A stretch of DNA of 60,019 nt, counting the filler, from Theionarchaea archaeon (GTDB lineage: Archaea; Methanobacteriota_B; Thermococci; Methanofastidiosales; SZ-28-30): NCBI GenBank assembly GCA_018992565.1. It is 4 parts of 4 records of this genome, joined end to end, with 100 filler letters (N's around TTAATTAATTAA, not from the genome) between each part and the next. Parts side by side here need not be neighbours in the genome. Positions count along the whole stretch, not along the records: positions 55,188 to 60,019 come from JACVGW010000129.1; 3 more parts are not named here. One strand, written 5' to 3'. The translations under genes and the position numbers were made by a program. Position 1 is the first letter of the stretch, and each line of letters begins with the position of its first letter. This document shows positions 172 through 60,019 of the stretch, piece after piece. The notes under the pieces were generated by a model. That model was not told the origin of the DNA, did no database searches, and worked only from the letters and a program-made list of their open reading frames with translations.

Positions 172-1281
172 ATGTTTATTAAGAGTAATCTGCAGAATGA
201 GGATGTTGAAATGGAAATGAACACAAGCCGTCCCTTGAAAACCCAGGTTATGGCTGTAGACAGAGAGAACCCAGACCTCAACAAGATCAGGATTGCAGCA
301 AGAGTGATAAGAGAGGGTGGGCTGGTGGCATTCCCCACAGAAACTGTCTATGGATTGGGCGCCAATACGTTTGATGTGGAAGCTGTCTTGAGGATTTTCC
401 GGGCTAAGAACAGGCCATATGACAACCCGCTCATTGTCCACGTGTCTGAGAAAGATGCTGTGTACGACCTCGCGAGGGAAATCCCAGATACAGTAGAGGT
501 TCTCACAAGAAGGTTCTGGCCCGGTCCGCTCACTCTGTTGTTGAAGAGGGCTCCCCATGTGCCGAGACCAGAAAATATAGACGAGATAACAGTGAGGATG
601 CCCGACCATAAGGTAGCTCTGGCACTCATTGCAGAATCTGAGGTTCCTATATCTGCTCCCAGCGCAAATATCTCAGGAGGTGTCAGCCCCACCACAGCTC
701 AGCATGTATATCAGGACCTGGCAGGGAAAATAGAGGTTATCCTGGATGGGGGGCGCTGTGATGTGGGTGTTGAGTCTACGGTTCTGGATTTGACAGGAGA
801 GGTGCCTACTATACTGAGACCTGGTGGCATCACGCTGGAAGATCTCAAGGCAGTCCTGGGCAACGTGGAAGTTCACCCTGTGGCTGCTGCAGAAGGAAAA
901 ACGGAAGCTGAAGCACGTGCACCCGGTATGAAATACAAACACTATTCACCTCATGCTGACGTGATTGTGGTGGAAGGAGAGGTGCAGCGCATGGTGAACA
1001 AGATTAACCAACTCGTAGACCAGAACATACGCCAGGGATTGAAAGTGGGTGTCATGGCCACAGGAGAGACAGTTCAGTCCTACAGTCACGGGCTGATCAA
1101 AGTAGTAGGCTCTCGCCAGAATCTGGAGACTGTAGCCAGGAATTTGTTTGATGTGCTTCGCGCCTTCGATGAACAGGGAGTGGACGTTGTCATAGCAGAA
1201 GGGGTTGTCACCACCGAGATTGGACTGGCAATCATGAACAGATTGAGAAAGTCAGCTGGATTCAACATCATACGGGTCTAG
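172..1281 (+). CDS. sua5: L-threonylcarbamoyladenylate synthase (YrdC + SUA5 domains)
   Basis: VAFPTETVYGLGA, KNRPYDNPLIVHV, APSANISG and PGMKYKHYSP motifs; true start may be a downstream ATG (211 or 217). Confidence 0.95.
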   Translation: MFIKSNLQNEDVEMEMNTSRPLKTQVMAVDRENPDLNKIRIAARVIREGGLVAFPTETVYGLGANTFDVEAVLRIFRAKNRPYDNPLIVHVSEKDAVYDLAREIPDTVEVLTRRFWPGPLTLLLKRAPHVPRPENIDEITVRMPDHKVALALIAESEVPISAPSANISGGVSPTTAQHVYQDLAGKIEVILDGGRCDVGVESTVLDLTGEVPTILRPGGITLEDLKAVLGNVEVHPVAAAEGKTEAEARAPGMKYKHYSPHADVIVVEGEVQRMVNKINQLVDQNIRQGLKVGVMATGETVQSYSHGLIKVVGSRQNLETVARNLFDVLRAFDEQGVDVVIAEGVVTTEIGLAIMNRLRKSAGFNIIRV

Positions 1282-1302
1282 TATCTTCATAATATATGCG
1301 GG

Positions 1303-2277
1303 CTACATCTGGCGCCAGATGACGTCGACTTCATCAGTCCGCCACTTCTGAATGACTACTGTGTCTTCGAGGTTCATTCTTCTCCCATGGCAATATTCCA
1401 GCAGCCCCTGGTAAGCGATCATAGCGCCATTATCCCTGCACAGGCTTTGAAGGGGTACAAAAAAAGAAGCTCCTCTCTCCTGGCACATGGTATCACACAT
1501 CTCCTGCAATCGAGGAGAAGCGGCAACTCCTCCAGTCAACAACAATTCTGTTTTCTCAGTATGGGCCATGGCTCTTTCAGTCGCCTCCACCACCATAGCA
1601 TATGCATGTTCCATGAGTGATTTGGTAGCATCTCTCAGGTTATATTCCCGGACCATTTTCAAGGCCTGTGTCAACAATCCGGAGAATGAGAAGTCATTTC
1701 CTTTCACAGTGTAGGGAAGCCCAGGGATATACACACCTGTCCTGACCATTTCATCCACTTCTCTGTAACATGGGAAGGACAGGCCTGCTTCCCTCCCAAA
1801 CATGTCCTGCATGTTACCGATCCCGACATCCAGGGTCTCTCCAAATACCCTGTATCTCCCCCCTGCATAGGCGATGATCTGCGTATTTCCTCCAGAGACA
1901 TATAATGTGACAGGATCAAGAGCTCCCGTGGTCCATCTCCCTACCTCTACATGCGCAATGCAGTGGTTCACTCCCACAATGGGAATACTCAATCGCAATG
2001 AGATGGTACGAGCACATGTAGCTGCAATTCTCAAACAAGGACCAAGTCCAGGCCCTTTTGAAAAAGAAACTACATTAACGTCAGCAATTTCAATATCTGC
2101 CTTTTTCAAAGCCTTTCTCAGAACACATCCAACCGATTCAGCGTGATGGTCTGCAGCTTCCCGGGGATGGATACCTTCTCCTGAATAGCTGTCACTCTCG
2201 TTTGCCAGAACTTCATTCTCTGTGACAATCCCCACGCCAAACGTGTGAGCCGTACTCTCGATACCCAGGCAGATCAT
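1303..2277 (-). CDS. kae1: tRNA N6-adenosine threonylcarbamoyltransferase Kae1/TsaD (standalone, not fused to Bud32)
   Basis: LGIESTAHT, GPGLGPCL, VNHCIAH, YVSGGNTQ and DNGAMIA motifs. Confidence 0.95.
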   Translation of the reverse strand: MICLGIESTAHTFGVGIVTENEVLANESDSYSGEGIHPREAADHHAESVGCVLRKALKKADIEIADVNVVSFSKGPGLGPCLRIAATCARTISLRLSIPIVGVNHCIAHVEVGRWTTGALDPVTLYVSGGNTQIIAYAGGRYRVFGETLDVGIGNMQDMFGREAGLSFPCYREVDEMVRTGVYIPGLPYTVKGNDFSFSGLLTQALKMVREYNLRDATKSLMEHAYAMVVEATERAMAHTEKTELLLTGGVAASPRLQEMCDTMCQERGASFFVPLQSLCRDNGAMIAYQGLLEYCHGRRMNLEDTVVIQKWRTDEVDVIWRQM

Positions 2278-3014: not shown

Positions 3015-3510
3015 TCATCTTTCTCGAGGGGGTATGAGGTCTTCAAGCTCCCTCAGAATTTCCGTTTCCACATCAATAAGTATGTTCTCCTTGACTCTTC
3101 CCACAACTGATGCTGGTGCCTGCAGGACATCCTCTTTAAACACTGTCTTTCTACCAGATTCACTGGATCTCCTAACAGCCTCTGTAGCAATCCGGTGAGC
3201 AAAATTCTCTACGATATCTCTCANNNNNNNNNNNNNNNNNNNNNNNNNNNNNNNNNNNNNNNNNNNNNNNNNNNNNNNNNNNNNNNNNNNNNNNNNNNNN
3301 NNNNNNNNNNNNNNNNNNNNNNNGGACATCCTCTTTAAACACTGTCTTTCTACCAGATTCACTGGATCTCCTAACAGCCTCTGTAGCAATCCGGTGAGCA
3401 AAATTCTCTACGATATCTCTCAATTCAAGAGCGGCATCTTTTGACACTCTCTCAGCACCCGCTTTTCGCAAGATTCTATCCACTGGTGCAAGGGCAATTG
3501 GCATATTCAT
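3015..3510 (-). CDS. Archaeal histone with a C-terminal extension, interrupted by a scaffold gap
   Basis: IALAPVDRILRKAGAERVSKDA and GRKTVFKEDV histone-fold motifs; merging the 99-bp duplicate flanking the gap gives one ORF of about 98 aa. Confidence 0.85.
3224..3323. other. 100-N scaffold gap flanked by an identical 99-bp sequence (3125-3223 = 3324-3422)
   Basis: Direct comparison of the two flanks. Confidence 0.95.
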
Positions 3511-25006: not shown

Positions 25007-25106
25007 NNNNNNNNNNNNNNNNNNNNNNNNNNNNNNNNNNNNNNNNNNNNTTAATTAATTAANNNNNNNNNNNNNNNNNNNNNNNNNNNNNNNNNNNNNN
25101 NNNNNN
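25007..25106. other. Artificial contig linker
   Basis: N-run + TTAATTAATTAA (stops in all six frames) + N-run. Confidence 0.97.
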
Positions 25107-42049: not shown

Positions 42050-42149
42050 NNNNNNNNNNNNNNNNNNNNNNNNNNNNNNNNNNNNNNNNNNNNNNNNNNN
42101 NNNNNNNNNNNNNNNNNNNNNNNNNNNNNNNNNNNNNNNNNNNNNNNNN
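42050..42149. other. 100-N scaffold gap
   Basis: Run of N. Confidence 0.97.
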
Positions 42150-50018: not shown

Positions 50019-50118
50019 NNNNNNNNNNNNNNNNNNNNNNNNNNNNNNNNNNNNNNNNNNNNTTAATTAATTAANNNNNNNNNNNNNNNNNNNNNNNNNN
50101 NNNNNNNNNNNNNNNNNN
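50019..50118. other. Artificial contig linker
   Basis: N-run + TTAATTAATTAA + N-run. Confidence 0.97.
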
Positions 50119-55087: not shown

Positions 55088-55187
55088 NNNNNNNNNNNNN
55101 NNNNNNNNNNNNNNNNNNNNNNNNNNNNNNNTTAATTAATTAANNNNNNNNNNNNNNNNNNNNNNNNNNNNNNNNNNNNNNNNNNNN
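55088..55187. other. Artificial contig linker
   Basis: N-run + TTAATTAATTAA + N-run. Confidence 0.97.
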
Positions 55188-55708
55188 TCTGCTCCTTTGA
55201 CTAGTTCTTCCAGAGAACTGCAGTATCCTGAATCTCCAGTGACGGCCACTGTTTTATTCTTGAAGGTGATTCTGTACCCTACTGCCGGCATGGGGGAGAG
55301 AACTCCTTGGGCTGTTGAACCTGCATGAACAACGAAAAAGGGTTGTACAACAGCGTTTGAGAGGGTGTAGAGGTGCCTATCCTCAACTATGGTTATTGTC
55401 ATGGGATAGGGGAGGGTATCCTGATAGCAAGTCTTGAATCCTTTAATGACGGCATCTACTTCACACGCTCCAGGGTGGAAAATGTTCAGAGGGGTTTTGT
55501 GGCCTATCATTCGCAGATATCCTAAGAGGGAATGTAACCCACCCATGTGGTCGTAATGGCCATGGGTGATCAAGACGGTATCAAGGGTCTGGAAATCGTA
55601 GGATGCTGTAAGAAGGTCACGAAGGGTTCCATCCCCCACATCGACGAGTATATTGTCCAGGAGAATTTGGGTGGCTATGCCAGCCTGTGAGAATAATACG
55701 GGATCCAT
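55188..55708 (-). CDS. Metallo-beta-lactamase-fold hydrolase (RNase Z-like), 3'-truncated
   Basis: LVDVGDG, THGHYDH (HxHxDH), GYRI and TGDS motifs. Confidence 0.85.
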
Positions 55709-56087
55709 AGTACGGTAGTGACTGTGATATTTTAAGGTTGAGGGTAGGATAGGACATTGAATTCATTTCATGAAATGATTTTTGTTGCTTGGAGAACCAT
55801 CCTGAAGAAGACTCTGTCTTGGAACATCCATAGCCCTAGTGCTTGGAGTTGAACATAGATTGAAGCATCGGGTTCATCTCATGGTCTGATTCAAATAAAT
55901 ATTGTGTATCCACGAGCATGCTATCATACCGATCCATTTCGCATTCTCACTTGTTACGTTTCTGCAATAGCGAATTATCTTTCTACAGATATCCTTTCTC
56001 CCGTTCCTCTTCAGTGAGGTACACTACGAACCTTTTGTACCCTCTGTATTGCTATTCAACTTACCATATACAGAATGCGATATACTG

Positions 56088-56138
56088 GCGAAAACTATAA
56101 AAGGCTGCTCTGCATGAGAAACAGAAACAAGGAGGTGA
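56088..56138 (+). promoter_or_regulatory. BRE/TATA-like promoter and RBS of the precursor gene
   Basis: GCGAAAAC-TATAAAA at 56088-56103 and GGAGGTGA at 56131-56138. Confidence 0.6.
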
Positions 56139-56142
56139 TAGG

Positions 56143-56382
56143 ATGAGCATGAGAGCATTGAATCCCGATAGAGAGAAAGTTGAAGAAAGCTTCACACGAG
56201 CATTCTGTGCAACTCTTCCATCAGAGAAGGAGGTCTCAGAGACATCAAAAGCTTTCTGCGCTACGCTCCCCGGGGAACCTGATGCGAGGGCAATTACCAA
56301 GTCCTTCTGTGCGACTCTCCCTTCTGAGAAAGATATTCGTGCTCGAGCACGCGAAGCCCTTAAATCCATGCTGAAAGAATGA
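56143..56382 (+). CDS. Putative multi-core RiPP precursor peptide with three FCATLP(S/G)E repeats
   Basis: Cys at residues 22, 39 and 56; repeats conserved in protein but with synonymous codon differences; strong RBS; directly upstream of radical SAM genes. Confidence 0.85.
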   Translation: MSMRALNPDREKVEESFTRAFCATLPSEKEVSETSKAFCATLPGEPDARAITKSFCATLPSEKDIRARAREALKSMLKE

Positions 56383-56443
56383 AAGTCCATGAACGTTGAG
56401 GATGGTTATCCCTCTTTTTCTCTTTTATTTATCAGGTGACCCC

Positions 56444-57784
56444 ATGTATGTGAGCAAATACAATATAATCCTGGATGTAGACAACCACACAGAAAAAATA
56501 CTCATTAATCCCCTTTCACAATCCATAGATGTAGTGGATGAAGACGACGAGGTGTGTGCTTTCTTGAAAGGTGCAGGGGCTCTTGAGAATGTGAAAGGTT
56601 CAGATCGAGACTACCTTCTTCAGAGAGGATACCTTTTCAATGAGCCTGAAGAAGAAGAGAACCTTATTCGCGACGTGATCAGAAAGGATGATCGTGAAGA
56701 ATACCCGTGTGACTTCCTATTGTATCCCACCTTTCACTGTAACTTCAGGTGCACATACTGCTTCCAGAGTGAGCTTCCCAAATACTCTTTTATCTCAACT
56801 GACTATGTGAATAAGGCTTTTGAGGCTATAGAATCCATAAGCAGAGACGCAAGAGCTGAATCTCCCCTCCTCTACTTATTCGGGGGAGAACCTCTCCTCA
56901 AGGGGAAGAAGGCTAAAGAAACTATAACATATATACTGCAGCAGGCCTGCAATAGGGGATACAGAACTGCAGTAATCACCAATGGCTCCAATGTACAGTT
57001 GTATTCCTCTTTACTGAGAAAATATGAAGTAGAGTTCATTCAAATCACGCTGGACGGACCCCAGCACATTCATGATAACCGACGTCTCTATGCTAATGGT
57101 AAAGGAACGTTCAACAATATTAAAAAGGGTATAGAAAGCCTTCTTGGTTCAGATGTAAGAATATTAATCAGAATGAACTTAGATTCGCAAAATATTGATT
57201 ATATACCAGAATTTGCTGACTTCGTGTATGAATCTGGTTGGGACAAAGACAATGTAACAGTATTCGTGGGCCCGTATCGAGACCTCCTGTGCAGGAGTTA
57301 CGAGTATCAATTGCCAGAACACGTGATGCTTGAGAGGATGTTCACCTTTTACCAGGAGAATCCCGCAACTAGAATCATTAAATTGCTGGCATGGCCTGGT
57401 GCAGATTACATCCTGCATTTCCTGTACACGAGAGAGCTTCCCCCGCCGCGGGTGAGTTACTGCATTTCCAGTTATGGAAGGTTTGGGTTTGACGCAGAAG
57501 GATATATGTACGCATGCGGTAATGCTGCAGGGAACAAGGACTATGCAATAGGGAGGTACTACCCAGAGGTCACACTTGATGAAGAGAGGGTACGAATGTG
57601 GAGGAAGCGGAGGGTTGAAACCATTCCTTCTTGCAGAGAATGTGAACTCGCTTTCCTGTGTGGAGGGGGGTGCACGCTCCAGTCTCTCCTGAAGTTCGAT
57701 GGGGAAAAGCCCTTCTGTCCTGAAATTCTTCAAAACTTGAAGGTGGCTGTAACCCATTATTTTGATGAGATTGTAGGTGATTAG
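56444..57784 (+). CDS. Radical SAM/SPASM peptide maturase
   Basis: CNFRCTYC, FGGEPLL, TNG, QITLDG and SPASM YC...YAC...CRECELAFLCGGGC...FC; start reset to ATG 56444 after AGGTGA. Confidence 0.92.
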   Translation: MYVSKYNIILDVDNHTEKILINPLSQSIDVVDEDDEVCAFLKGAGALENVKGSDRDYLLQRGYLFNEPEEEENLIRDVIRKDDREEYPCDFLLYPTFHCNFRCTYCFQSELPKYSFISTDYVNKAFEAIESISRDARAESPLLYLFGGEPLLKGKKAKETITYILQQACNRGYRTAVITNGSNVQLYSSLLRKYEVEFIQITLDGPQHIHDNRRLYANGKGTFNNIKKGIESLLGSDVRILIRMNLDSQNIDYIPEFADFVYESGWDKDNVTVFVGPYRDLLCRSYEYQLPEHVMLERMFTFYQENPATRIIKLLAWPGADYILHFLYTRELPPPRVSYCISSYGRFGFDAEGYMYACGNAAGNKDYAIGRYYPEVTLDEERVRMWRKRRVETIPSCRECELAFLCGGGCTLQSLLKFDGEKPFCPEILQNLKVAVTHYFDEIVGD

Positions 57785-58921
57785 ATGTATTTCAGTAGAT
57801 TCAATTACGTCTCGGACTATGAGAAGGATGGCCAGAGACTCTTGATGAATTTTTTGAGCCAGTCGTGTGATATTGTTGATGAAGAATCAGCCTCACACTT
57901 TTCCCAGGAGAAGGATGTTTCTACAGAGGAAAGGGAGTATGCGCTCCAGAGAGGATATATTTTCCAGGATGAAGCTGAGGAGTTGATACTGCTCCAGAAG
58001 TTGTATCACTATGAGCTTCAGAATAAGAGAGTCCTCTCTGTGGTTCTCTTGGATACCTTTGATGGGAAGGGATTGAGAGAGGTTCTGAAAGACATGAAGA
58101 ATCGAAATAGTCAATGCGTTCTCTTCACTGAGCATCCATTGGATGATTCATTGCCGTTCGATCACTTTGACAACTTGTTGACACTGCACATTGTCACAAC
58201 TCATGAGAACCTGCGTGCATTTGAACCCTTTTTCATGAAAAACATGGTTTCAAAGGTCTCATTGTTGCTACCCCTATCGGGTTCTATACTCTTTGCTGAA
58301 GAAGTTGAATCACGTGTCGATACTCTGGTGGAATCTGGAACTCTTGTTGAAATCATTCCCAGAGTCCAGGAGAGTGAAGTTGAACTCCTGAGACCCCTGA
58401 TGAAATACTTCATTTACAAGGGATGGCCCTTTCTGGAGAATTTCACCTGCAGCCTGGAACCCAATCCCAATGAAGGATGCATCTTTGGGCGCTGGTATGG
58501 TACCGAGAATCTAGTTCGTCGTATCTTTAGGGAGTATGCTGCATACCCTCAGACAGAATTCTGCAGTATAAAGAACTGGGTGGGAGTGAATCCCATTCAT
58601 TCACTGATCTGGACAGGAAAACCGTCTCCTCCTTCCTTTAATTTCTGTGAAGCATCCAAAGGGCTGACAGCTCTAAAGAGATGGTGTGAAGTTCCCTGCC
58701 CCTACCTGGATTCAGGTAAATTCGAGGCAGAAAATCCATCTGACTGCCAGGTCTGTACTTTTGCTCTCACATGCGGAGGAGGATGCAGGTTGAAGTCAAC
58801 CCAGAAAGCGGAACGGTGTCCCCCAGTAAAAGAACTGATTGAAGCATCTCTCGAATACTATTTTGACGAGTTCCTGCAGCGAATAACCTTTGGTGAGCAG
58901 TATCATGGAGGGATCCAATGA
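57785..58921 (+). CDS. Degenerate paralog of the upstream radical SAM/SPASM protein, lacking CxxxCxxC
   Basis: Shared N-terminus (LSQS.D.VDE, LQRGY.F) and C-terminus (CxxCxxAxxCGGGC...CP...YFDE); no SAM-cluster motif or GGEP. Confidence 0.8.
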   Translation: MYFSRFNYVSDYEKDGQRLLMNFLSQSCDIVDEESASHFSQEKDVSTEEREYALQRGYIFQDEAEELILLQKLYHYELQNKRVLSVVLLDTFDGKGLREVLKDMKNRNSQCVLFTEHPLDDSLPFDHFDNLLTLHIVTTHENLRAFEPFFMKNMVSKVSLLLPLSGSILFAEEVESRVDTLVESGTLVEIIPRVQESEVELLRPLMKYFIYKGWPFLENFTCSLEPNPNEGCIFGRWYGTENLVRRIFREYAAYPQTEFCSIKNWVGVNPIHSLIWTGKPSPPSFNFCEASKGLTALKRWCEVPCPYLDSGKFEAENPSDCQVCTFALTCGGGCRLKSTQKAERCPPVKELIEASLEYYFDEFLQRITFGEQYHGGIQ

Positions 58922-60019
58922 AAATCTCTTTAGTAGTCCCGAATGTGGCAAAACACATCCACGGTGAAACTTTTGAGCCACTTGGTGTCTTGTACATTGC
59001 TTCAGGGCTTTGCACCGAACATGAGGTGCAGATTGTGGACAGTTTCAACAGAAAGCTGAATCTAGAAGAAACAGTGAAAGAAGTACTCTCATTTGAACCT
59101 GATGTCGTGGGAATCAGTATTACCATGAGTCCCACAGCTCTTTTTGGAAAAAAAGTAGCACAAGAAGTGAAGCAGGCATTACATATTCCTGTAATCGTGG
59201 GTGGTACCCATGCTACCTTTGCAGCAGAAGAATTAGCTCTCAATCCGAGTATTGATATTGTGGTTCTGCATGAGGGAGAAGTCACTTTTCAGGAGATTGT
59301 GAACTGCCTGCAGGGGGATATTGCTCTGTCCACTATTAGGGGAATAGCATTTCAGCATGATGGGAACACACTAAAGACACAGATACGGGAACCTCTGAAA
59401 GATCTGGATAGCATTCCTTTCCCTGCACGGCATTTACTCCCGGATCACCGCATATACAGCAGAAACCACATACTGTCAAGCCGGGGCTGTGTCTTCAAGT
59501 GCATTTACTGCGCCTCTTCAGCCATGAATCAGTACCGGTGGAGATCCCGAAGTCCTGAAAATGTTCTGGAGGAAATGGAAATCATGGCTTCAGAGTACTC
59601 TTCTACCTTCTACTTTGCGGATGACAATTTCCCTGTGAACCAGGAGAGGACTCTGACACTCTGCAGAGAGATTGTGGAAACGAACTTGTCGGTAACGTGG
59701 GCGTGTCTATCCCGGATTGAATTCATGGATGATAAGGACTTATTACAGGCCATGGCCCGCGCTGGATGCAGAGAAATCTTTATTGGAGCAGAATCAGGAA
59801 GTGACCCGGTACTCAAGAAATTGAAGAGAACCTATACTGCTGAAGATATAAAGAGAGTGGTGAAGTTGTGTAATGACACAGGTATTTCAACGACAGTCTC
59901 TTTTATTGTTGGGAATCCCTTTGAAACTCTGGAAGACGTCAGAAGAACCTTCGAAGTGGCAGCAGAACTTGACACTCCCAATGTGGCTTTCCACATTTTT
60001 ACACCCTATATTGGAACTC
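58918..60019 (+). CDS. Cobalamin-dependent radical SAM enzyme (class B methyltransferase-like), runs off the window
   Basis: Hand translation: PLGVLYIAS, PDVVGIS, VGGTHAT, HEGE, SRGCVFKCIYC, ADDNF, IGAESGS, FIVGNPFET; ATGA overlap with the previous gene; absent from the ORF track. Confidence 0.93.
   Translation, partial: MKISLVVPNVAKHIHGETFEPLGVLYIASGLCTEHEVQIVDSFNRKLNLEETVKEVLSFEPDVVGISITMSPTALFGKKVAQEVKQALHIPVIVGGTHATFAAEELALNPSIDIVVLHEGEVTFQEIVNCLQGDIALSTIRGIAFQHDGNTLKTQIREPLKDLDSIPFPARHLLPDHRIYSRNHILSSRGCVFKCIYCASSAMNQYRWRSRSPENVLEEMEIMASEYSSTFYFADDNFPVNQERTLTLCREIVETNLSVTWACLSRIEFMDDKDLLQAMARAGCREIFIGAESGSDPVLKKLKRTYTAEDIKRVVKLCNDTGISTTVSFIVGNPFETLEDVRRTFEVAAELDTPNVAFHIFTPYIGT

Follow-up and report, generated by a model that had tools for sequence, protein, structure and literature searches.

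The window, that is, the whole stretch of 60,019 nucleotides of a Theionarchaea archaeon that was analysed, is not contiguous DNA, being composed of several contigs joined by N/TTAATTAATTAA linkers. The locus described here lies on one 4832-bp contig (G000:C132), which corresponds to window positions 55188-60019. Since this contig starts at 55188, the genes to the left of that position are not its neighbours. The contig carries on its plus strand a short precursor peptide gene, A1 (56143..56382), followed by three larger genes, B (56444..57784), C (57785..58921) and D (58918..60018). The host genome is an 88%-complete assembly of 2.8 Mb in 154 contigs. As mcrA has no match in this 88%-complete genome, the host is not called a methanogen.

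Translation of A1 from 56143-56382 on the plus strand yields a peptide of 79 aa, MSMRALNPDREKVEESFTRAFCATLPSEKEVSETSKAFCATLPGEPDARAITKSFCATLPSEKDIRARAREALKSMLKE, or of 77 aa with the ATG at 56149 as the start. Most orthologues start, in the alignment, at the position equal to this second ATG. The peptide consists of a leader, three units and a variable C-terminal tail. The three units have the form K-[AS]-F-C-A-T-L-P-[SG]-E and follow each other at a 17-aa period, with a single Cys in each FCATLP motif. The motifs, all on the plus strand, are located at 56203..56220 (TTC TGT GCA ACT CTT CCA), 56254..56271 (TTC TGC GCT ACG CTC CCC) and 56305..56322 (TTC TGT GCG ACT CTC CCT). The initial annotation had described FCATLP codons starting at 56203, 56254 and 56305 with a 51-nt (17-aa) period and exclusively synonymous differences, diverging spacers and a leader of about 17 aa. 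The description is accurate: the codons read identically, the 17-codon units share 25-30 of 51 nt with 6-9 non-synonymous codons per pair, and the leader measures 18-20 aa, or two fewer from the ATG at 56149. In the host genome, read in all six frames over 2.8 Mb, FCATLP is found at these three places only.

Sequences resembling expression signals surround the gene. The Shine-Dalgarno sequence AAGGAGGTGA (56129..56138, plus strand), read directly, is the ribosome-binding site of A1, and GGAGGTG also stands before the start codon in the homologous loci L011-L016. About 35-48 nt upstream of the start codon lies the box CTATAAAAGGCTGC (56095..56108, plus strand). A box of the form (C/G)T(A/T)TAAAAGG(C/G)T occurs at equal upstream distance in the window, in L011-L014 and in L016, and from its sequence it would be an archaeal TATA/BRE-like promoter element. 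Between A1 and B, a T-rich tract, tctttttctcttttatttat (56413..56432, plus strand), was read directly; a similar tract precedes the maturase gene in L016. It is possibly a partial archaeal oligo-T terminator. In one metatranscriptome run, a single contig of 312 nt matches 56153-56464 with 0 mismatches. It comprises A1, the spacer and the first 21 nt of B, and it reads through the T-rich tract to 56464. The rest of the 4.8-kb stretch has no cover in this run, which is not evidence of silent enzyme genes. As one strandless contig from an RNA library, a kind of library that can contain DNA, it fits a strongly transcribed precursor gene. The gene would have been doubtful, according to the initial annotation, if neither transcript or peptide evidence nor homologues preserving the core had been found; the homologues do keep the core, and the RNA-library contig covers the gene.

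The motif is conserved at the level of the peptide. In 10 loci, all 36 copies read FCATLP and are encoded by 33 distinct 18-nt versions. The variable nucleotide columns of the motif are all synonymous sites, namely third positions and the first position of Leu. Because FCATLP is unique to three sites in the genome and invariant in 36 of 36 copies, chance is excluded. A simple estimate of pN/pS in the sense frame, made on a block of 162 nt without gaps from 8 loci, gives 0.155. A coding signal of this kind could also belong to a 109-aa antisense ORF (56061-56390), which is uninterrupted in the window and most of the low-GC loci and whose pN/pS is 0.221, or to a non-coding repeat. However, the antisense frame has the same wobble positions as the sense frame and thus inherits its signal. 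The synonymous-site test alone cannot separate the sense frame from a wobble-matched antisense frame, and motif variants and stop codons are needed for the purpose. The antisense motif peptide exists in 7 variants over the 36 copies versus 1 in the sense frame, and the antisense frame is interrupted by stops in L009 and in both genes for a second precursor, A2 (described below); the plus strand is therefore the coding strand. Moreover, the Shine-Dalgarno sequence, the promoter-like box and the operon order with the enzyme genes all belong to the sense strand, so that an antisense or non-coding origin of the signal is highly improbable. The view that selection acts on the peptide and not on a DNA repeat, already expressed in the initial annotation, is borne out by the single peptide from 33 coding versions, the pN/pS value and the variation of the antisense motif. 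At the sequence level these data establish A1 as a real gene, with strong purifying selection on the three K-[AS]-F-C-A-T-L-P copies.

A word-seeded search of 5.8 billion proteins returned 20 precursor relatives of 67-92 aa. The sources name them only as "hypothetical protein", and the MAGs are labelled Theionarchaea, Candidatus Methanofastidiosia and Methanosarcina sp. Three intact motifs are present in 19 of the 21 aligned precursor sequences; K36, F38-P43, K53 and F55-S61 are invariant, and F21-P26 are at least 90% conserved. Pattern scans yielded 2 loci in species-representative genomes and 9 in metagenome contigs, while a pattern scan of genome contigs with B as the query gave no relative, which is a limit of the pattern method. 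No precursor was found in 60 relatives of the host genome, the best E of 0.036 being noise. A word search for forms of 140-2000 aa found none among 304 candidates, so that no form above 139 aa came from this search. One of the two species-representative loci, L010 from a Pseudomonadota MAG, consists of a single KAFCATLPG word in an implausible high-GC frame and was dropped as chance. A profile search of 1.84 billion representatives gave 13 proteins at E <= 0.001; P0027, P0029, P0030, P0031, P0033 and P0034 were dropped as unrelated repeat proteins in which the Cys motif is matched poorly or not at all. Another protein, P0032 (316 aa), has 11 AAFCAMRP copies (the last one AAFCAVLP) at a 15-aa period behind a domain of ~130 aa with no match in Pfam, and is a distant lead only. 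The A1 peptide itself has no match in Pfam, and its sole NCBIfam match, UspF, is attributable to chance (16.6 bits against a cut-off of 166).

The number and spacing of the motifs vary. The second precursor, A2 (42 aa), is encoded between A1 and the maturase gene in L014, L015 and L016, and was not found in the window or elsewhere in the host genome. It has its own ribosome-binding site, begins with M-x-[KT]-A-L-T, which is related to the A1 start, contains two motifs 14 aa apart and ends 3 residues past the last of them. The precursor of L019 has 113 aa and five motifs spaced by 13, 17, 17 and 17 aa. The alignment for repeat number, which the initial annotation had proposed as a check, gives 2 (A2), 3 or 5 (L019) motifs and spacings of 13, 14 or 17 aa. 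Given this variation and the single Cys per motif, each motif is expected to be modified once, and the size of the product is not expected to be fixed. Two types of spacer, SE+EV and GE.D, take turns along the peptide, giving a 34-aa super-repeat, and each type is conserved among orthologues.

The first gene after A1, B, encodes a radical SAM/SPASM peptide maturase of 446 aa (56444..57784, plus strand; Pfam Radical_SAM 3.6e-15) with a putative RRE-like N-terminal domain. Six orthologues all keep C99/C103/C106, GGEP 147-150 and 7 SPASM Cys unchanged. The best NCBIfam matches of B, all below cut-off, are CefB (NF038107; 1.4e-40, 139.5 bits against a cut-off of 600), TIGR04463 (3.9e-39, 134.6 against 525), Clo7bot and PapB (NF047865; 8.1e-34, 117.3 against 340). 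The SCIFF maturase model TIGR03974 gives 9.9e-23, with 80.7 bits against 425. CteB (5wgg) is the best solved relative, at 3.2e-17.

C (378 aa; 57785..58921, plus strand) is a paralogue of B, to which it is ~21-23% identical by BLASTP with E values of 1e-19 to 1e-22, and it has no match in Pfam. In the alignment, all 6 orthologues have a deletion in place of the CxxxCxxC loop and no longer carry GGEP. Conversely, the N-terminal ~90 aa are kept together with seven SPASM cysteines (C288, C305, C321, C324, C330, C334 and C345), which are invariant. Judged from these residues, C is a catalytically dead yet retained paralogue. Its AF2 model (pLDDT 74) matches anSME, CteB, SuiB, ChlB and SkfB and has an N-terminus of three strands then three helices over residues 7-79. 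The Pfam RRE/PqqD models gave no match to the N-terminal 91-95 aa of B and C even at E 10. The N-termini may nevertheless be called RRE-like, in view of the three-strand/three-helix topology of the model and of a homology that extends over the full length to families described as having an RRE, the alignments of B with CefB and TIGR04463 starting at its residue 1.

D is a B12-binding radical SAM enzyme (58918..60018, plus strand) with two Pfam domains, B12-binding PF02310 (4.2e-22) and Radical_SAM PF04055 (3.6e-26), and is truncated at the contig end, where 367 aa have been read. Through 99 nt of exact overlap, C132 connects to another contig of the genome, G000:C67, on which D residues 336-428 continue; a short-chain dehydrogenase gene and then unrelated genes come after D on that contig. 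The full length is 428-429 aa in L014 and L016, and the L014 copy gives the same two Pfam domains. D shares 81-83% identity with its counterparts in L014 and L016 and 56% with those of the high-GC loci. The best NCBIfam matches, ApyD (162 bits against 750), BchE and HpnJ, are all below cut-off, and TIGR03975 scores 87 against 282. The solved relatives of D are AprD4, OxsB, CysS, TsrM and TokK.

The order A-B-C-D is found in the window, L012 (where D is cut), L014, L016, L009 and L018, and in each of them the precursor gene is adjacent to and co-conserved with B. The five loci outside the window comprise three of low GC (L012, L014 and L016) and two of high GC, L009 and L018, with 64% and 69% GC; L009 is labelled as an Azospirillaceae MAG. 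The high-GC proteins are 46-47% (B), 28% (C) and 56% (D) identical to those of the window or L014. The genes on either side are different in each locus and include those for an MBL-fold protein, an ECF-S component, an M14 carboxypeptidase, a NiFe hydrogenase and a GGDEF-EAL protein. The cassette seems to be mobile, and its distribution patchy.

These surroundings bear on the fate of the peptide. In cyanobactin and dikaritin pathways, dedicated proteases recognise conserved flanking sites, and the precursors resemble A1 in their identical cores, diverging spacers and variable copy number. On this model A1 would be cut between units after modification, releasing 3 (or 2, or 5) near-identical small products. 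Indeed, its cores are identical while the spacers drift, its copy numbers of 2, 3 and 5 are as in multi-core precursors, and the K at -2 and the [SG]-E after the motif are largely conserved and could be cleavage signals, the K being invariant in units 2 and 3 of three-motif forms. An M14 carboxypeptidase gene is divergently adjacent in L016 only. Yet the flanking residues are not universal: in units of A2 and L019 the K gives way to T or N, P-[SG] may be followed by E, D, P, A, Q or N, and TTF and NSF are found before the motif and SP, SD, GP, GA and SQ after it. In contrast to the cyanobactin and dikaritin systems, no conserved protease or exporter is present beside the cassette across the 5 flanked loci (window/C67, L014, L016, L009 and L018), all of which have different neighbours. 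The conserved alternating spacers and a helix chain predicted along the whole peptide fit a single functional unit better, and release of several products is considered unlikely. The initial annotation had left the choice between a multi-core precursor cut into three products and a beads-on-a-string peptide recognised through a follower. A repeated-core precursor beside modifying enzymes is retained from this proposal, and beads on a string is the form that fits better; the cleavage lacks a conserved protease and universal flanking residues, and the follower is not supported either.

The follower had been proposed as an amphipathic C-terminal helix by which the enzymes would recognise the peptide, instead of the leader. 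In the AF2 model built on the precursor alignment (pLDDT 86), helices are predicted at residues 10-24, 28-40, 48-57 and 62-78; in each unit a helix ends with FCAT, and the following one is capped by LP[SG]E. The segment 62-78 is thus predicted to be helical, as the fourth of a series, with a block-mean pLDDT of 86-92, and in most three-motif homologues the tail is charged, measures 13-24 aa and includes a Leu of moderate conservation (0.57). However, the helix is only moderately amphipathic, since its hydrophobic moment of 0.45 is ordinary and is reached by 15% of shuffles. The mean pairwise identity is 0.50 in the leader, 0.82-0.90 in the motif units, 0.44 and 0.33 in the spacers and 0.28 in the tail. 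The comparison of leader and follower, also among the checks first proposed, therefore sets a leader at 0.50 with an invariant L6 against the least conserved region of the precursor. The leader start M-[RK]-P-L-[NT]-P is conserved (M3 0.72, position 5 0.89, L6 1.0), and its residues 3-6 are far better conserved than the tail. The tail varies in length and sequence, contains proline in the five-motif form and is missing from the 42-aa A2 peptides of the same operons, so that recognition through it is very improbable. N-terminal recognition is favoured, because the leader is better conserved than the tail and because A2 has no tail. A complex prediction of B and C with A as the partner, run without controls, gave scores of 0.26 and 0.10 against a mark of 0.32, which weigh neither for nor against binding and do not bear on the choice between leader and follower.

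The chemistry at the motif may be considered in the light of the relatives of B. A Phe-centred three-residue cyclophane (F-C-A), a sactionine (S to alpha-carbon) or an anSME-like Cys oxidation would each be an alternative to a thioether on a side chain. B also matches the cyclophane-forming YhhB (9.6e-18; 64.2 bits against a cut-off of 445), GrrM/OscB (8.6e-15; 54.6 against 310) and FxsB (1.9e-13; 50.2 against 370), with only the radical SAM core aligning, as well as anSME (2.1e-18). The F of the motif is as invariant as the C, and P0032 shares A-F-C-A-x-x-P, with M and R in place of the residues at i+2 and i+3. The six catalytic-site proximity positions of B are F107, F146, I178, T202, G359 and N360. 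In the part of the published comparison that is accessible, the profiles are F, F, T, S, H, Q for CteB and Y, T, I, S, K, L for the sactisynthase StsB (PMC10288494). Two positions of B are identical to CteB and one to StsB, these being the only two profiles compared, and the profile of B sides with no chemistry type. On the other hand, the Cys-peptide maturase families (1e-34 to 1e-40) match B 20 or more orders of magnitude better and in full-length alignment, and the closest solved structure is the thioether-forming CteB. Moreover, in TIGR04463/CrpC, the nearest archaeal enzyme family to have been characterised, the acceptor can be M, D or V, and L or R at i+3 therefore raises no conflict. 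A chemistry other than the side-chain thioether is accordingly rather unlikely.

It is very probable that A1 encodes the substrate of a peptide-modification pathway not described so far. With a probability of roughly 0.55, A1 is the precursor gene of an undescribed radical-SAM-modified RiPP family in which the peptide is leader-directed, has a repeated core and is modified in place, remaining in one piece. The extreme N-terminus of the leader, M-[RK]-P-L-[NT]-P, would dock on the RRE-like domain of B and/or C. B would act once per motif, most probably joining the motif Cys to a nearby side-chain carbon in a ranthionine-type thioether, as in related maturases. If modelled on the C-x-x-acceptor motifs of CrpC, the acceptor could be Leu i+3 or Thr i+2. 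D may, at a guess, methylate unactivated carbons, with one or more methyl groups. As for C, which is unable to cleave SAM, it would probably serve as a peptide-binding adaptor or an electron-transfer partner, and by a further guess it might hand the peptide over to D, an enzyme that lacks an RRE. A single peptide would result, in which three small modified "beads" mark where predicted helices reach their C-terminal ends. Since protease and exporter are absent from the cassette, the product is probably retained in the cell, or else dealt with by genes not linked to the cassette.

A more specific form of this pathway can be imagined, although it is speculative and the odds are against it. The product would be a modified helical peptide whose FCATLP units are stapled by the Cys thioether and methylated, C would be an obligatory adaptor or electron relay to D, and the peptide would act inside the cell in a cofactor-like or regulatory capacity and not as a secreted antibiotic. 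If so, C would have kept only a peptide-binding domain and two auxiliary iron-sulfur clusters, and the product would act in anaerobic sediment archaea and bacteria. To our knowledge, a "pseudo-enzyme" role such as that proposed for C has not been described for radical SAM RiPP pathways.

Radical SAM RiPP pathways are a main source of new peptide chemistry, and few archaeal examples are known. One of these systems is that of CrpC from Methanococcus voltae (TIGR04463), which, according to the available text, installs ranthionine links in ACAGM, CAVD, PCAGD and CPLVL motifs (PMC13692751). The substrate of CrpC has a 17-residue repeat and CrpB a 34-residue repeat; CrpC is described as carrying a predicted RRE and depends partly on the first 5 N-terminal residues of the substrate, which are the predicted RRE recognition sequence (PMC13692751, same portion). 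As far as that portion goes, the likeness to the present cassette extends to an archaeal radical SAM/SPASM enzyme, TIGR04463 being the second-best family match of B, to a Cys motif each 17 residues, to intramotif C-x-x-acceptor thioethers (proposed here by analogy), to an N-terminal recognition element and to a cluster without protease or exporter. Unlike CrpC, B is not a TIGR04463 member, with 135 bits against a cut-off of 525. The peptide studied here has 77-92 aa and one Cys per unit in FCATLP, whereas the Crp substrate, in the same text, is a protein rich in Cys that carries C-x-x-Q/D motifs. According to the description given there, the Crp cluster comprises three genes, without a dead paralogue or a B12 radical SAM enzyme.

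The ranthipeptides, represented by thermocellin/SCIFF with CteB (PDB 5wgg/5why) and by freyrasin with PapB, are another related class. CteB is the closest solved structure, the PapB and SCIFF-maturase models match B, and ranthipeptide clusters are also minimal, like this cassette. Freyrasin-type products are strings of small Cys-to-side-chain rings. In contrast to these systems, B is below the cut-offs of PapB (117/340) and the SCIFF maturase (81/425), one Cys is present per 17 aa as opposed to Cys-dense cores, and the extra partners C and D are conserved. A precedent for modification motif by motif is TvgA/TvgB, where, in the accessible text, a short repeated motif of variable repeat number is modified independently in each copy by one radical SAM/SPASM enzyme (PMC9062424). 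The repeated-core precursor and the variable number of repeats are shared with A1. The same text indicates the differences: the bond in TvgA is a C-C bond within the Val of TVGG, the 4-aa units are contiguous without spacers, and the cluster has oxidase and peptidase/transporter genes.

Literature searches gave no description of this cassette, and the string "FCATLP" was absent from 8.4 million papers searched in full text. Precursors with repeated cores that serve radical SAM/SPASM enzymes are known from TvgA/B and CrpA/C; the present family is distinguished by the motif, the retained dead paralogue and the B12 enzyme. The substrate is clean and easily synthesised, with three identical 6-aa motifs and one Cys each. 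The compact four-gene cassette occurs in archaea and bacteria and offers natural variants with 2, 3 and 5 motifs, and the retained dead paralogue C provides a direct route to the role of non-catalytic radical SAM relatives. The 4.8-kb stretch is also contained in DNA runs from 7 studies, which sampled estuary, marine sediment, mangrove and soil.

The number of FCATLP motifs in the precursor family varies between loci. A second, shorter precursor of 42 aa (A2) lies between the three-motif precursor gene (A1) and the radical SAM/SPASM maturase gene in three homologous loci, at positions 10565-10693 of L014 and 3087-3215 of L016, and as the same gene in L015. It carries two FCATLP motifs, 14 aa apart, lacks the C-terminal tail and is absent from the genome from which the window derives. 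At the other end of the range, a precursor of 113 aa (L019, 834-1175) contains five FCATLP motifs separated by spacers of alternating types; its contig is 1.6 kb in length and holds no enzyme context. Only in L016, among the loci, is the precursor adjoined divergently by a gene for a Big_7-containing M14 zinc carboxypeptidase (242-2110, minus strand).

A more distant protein of 316 aa (P0032), recovered by profile search, bears the repeat AAFCAMRP eleven times at 15-aa spacing, with the final copy reading AAFCAVLP. The repeats are preceded by an N-terminal domain of approximately 130 aa with no Pfam match. P0032 could represent a relative of the FCATLP precursor family on the scale of a whole protein.

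An antisense ORF of 109 aa (56061-56390, minus strand) overlaps the precursor gene and is open in most low-GC loci. Its apparent conservation is only a product of its wobble positions coinciding with those of the sense frame.

The window consists of several contigs concatenated via N runs (3224-3323, 25007-25106, 42050-42149, 50019-50118 and 55088-55187), some of which flank the linker TTAATTAATTAA, and gene neighbourhoods are valid only between these joins, never across them.

Metagenome-assembled genomes labelled Methanofastidiosia and Theionarchaea encode close homologues of the peptide, yet the window's own genome, which is 88% complete, has no match to mcrA (TIGR03256). Outside the window, tblastn with the B12-binding radical SAM enzyme (D) gives seven matches at 27-34% identity on a single contig of this genome (G000:C49, approximately 7500-28600), which suggests a cluster of putative B12 radical SAM paralogues.
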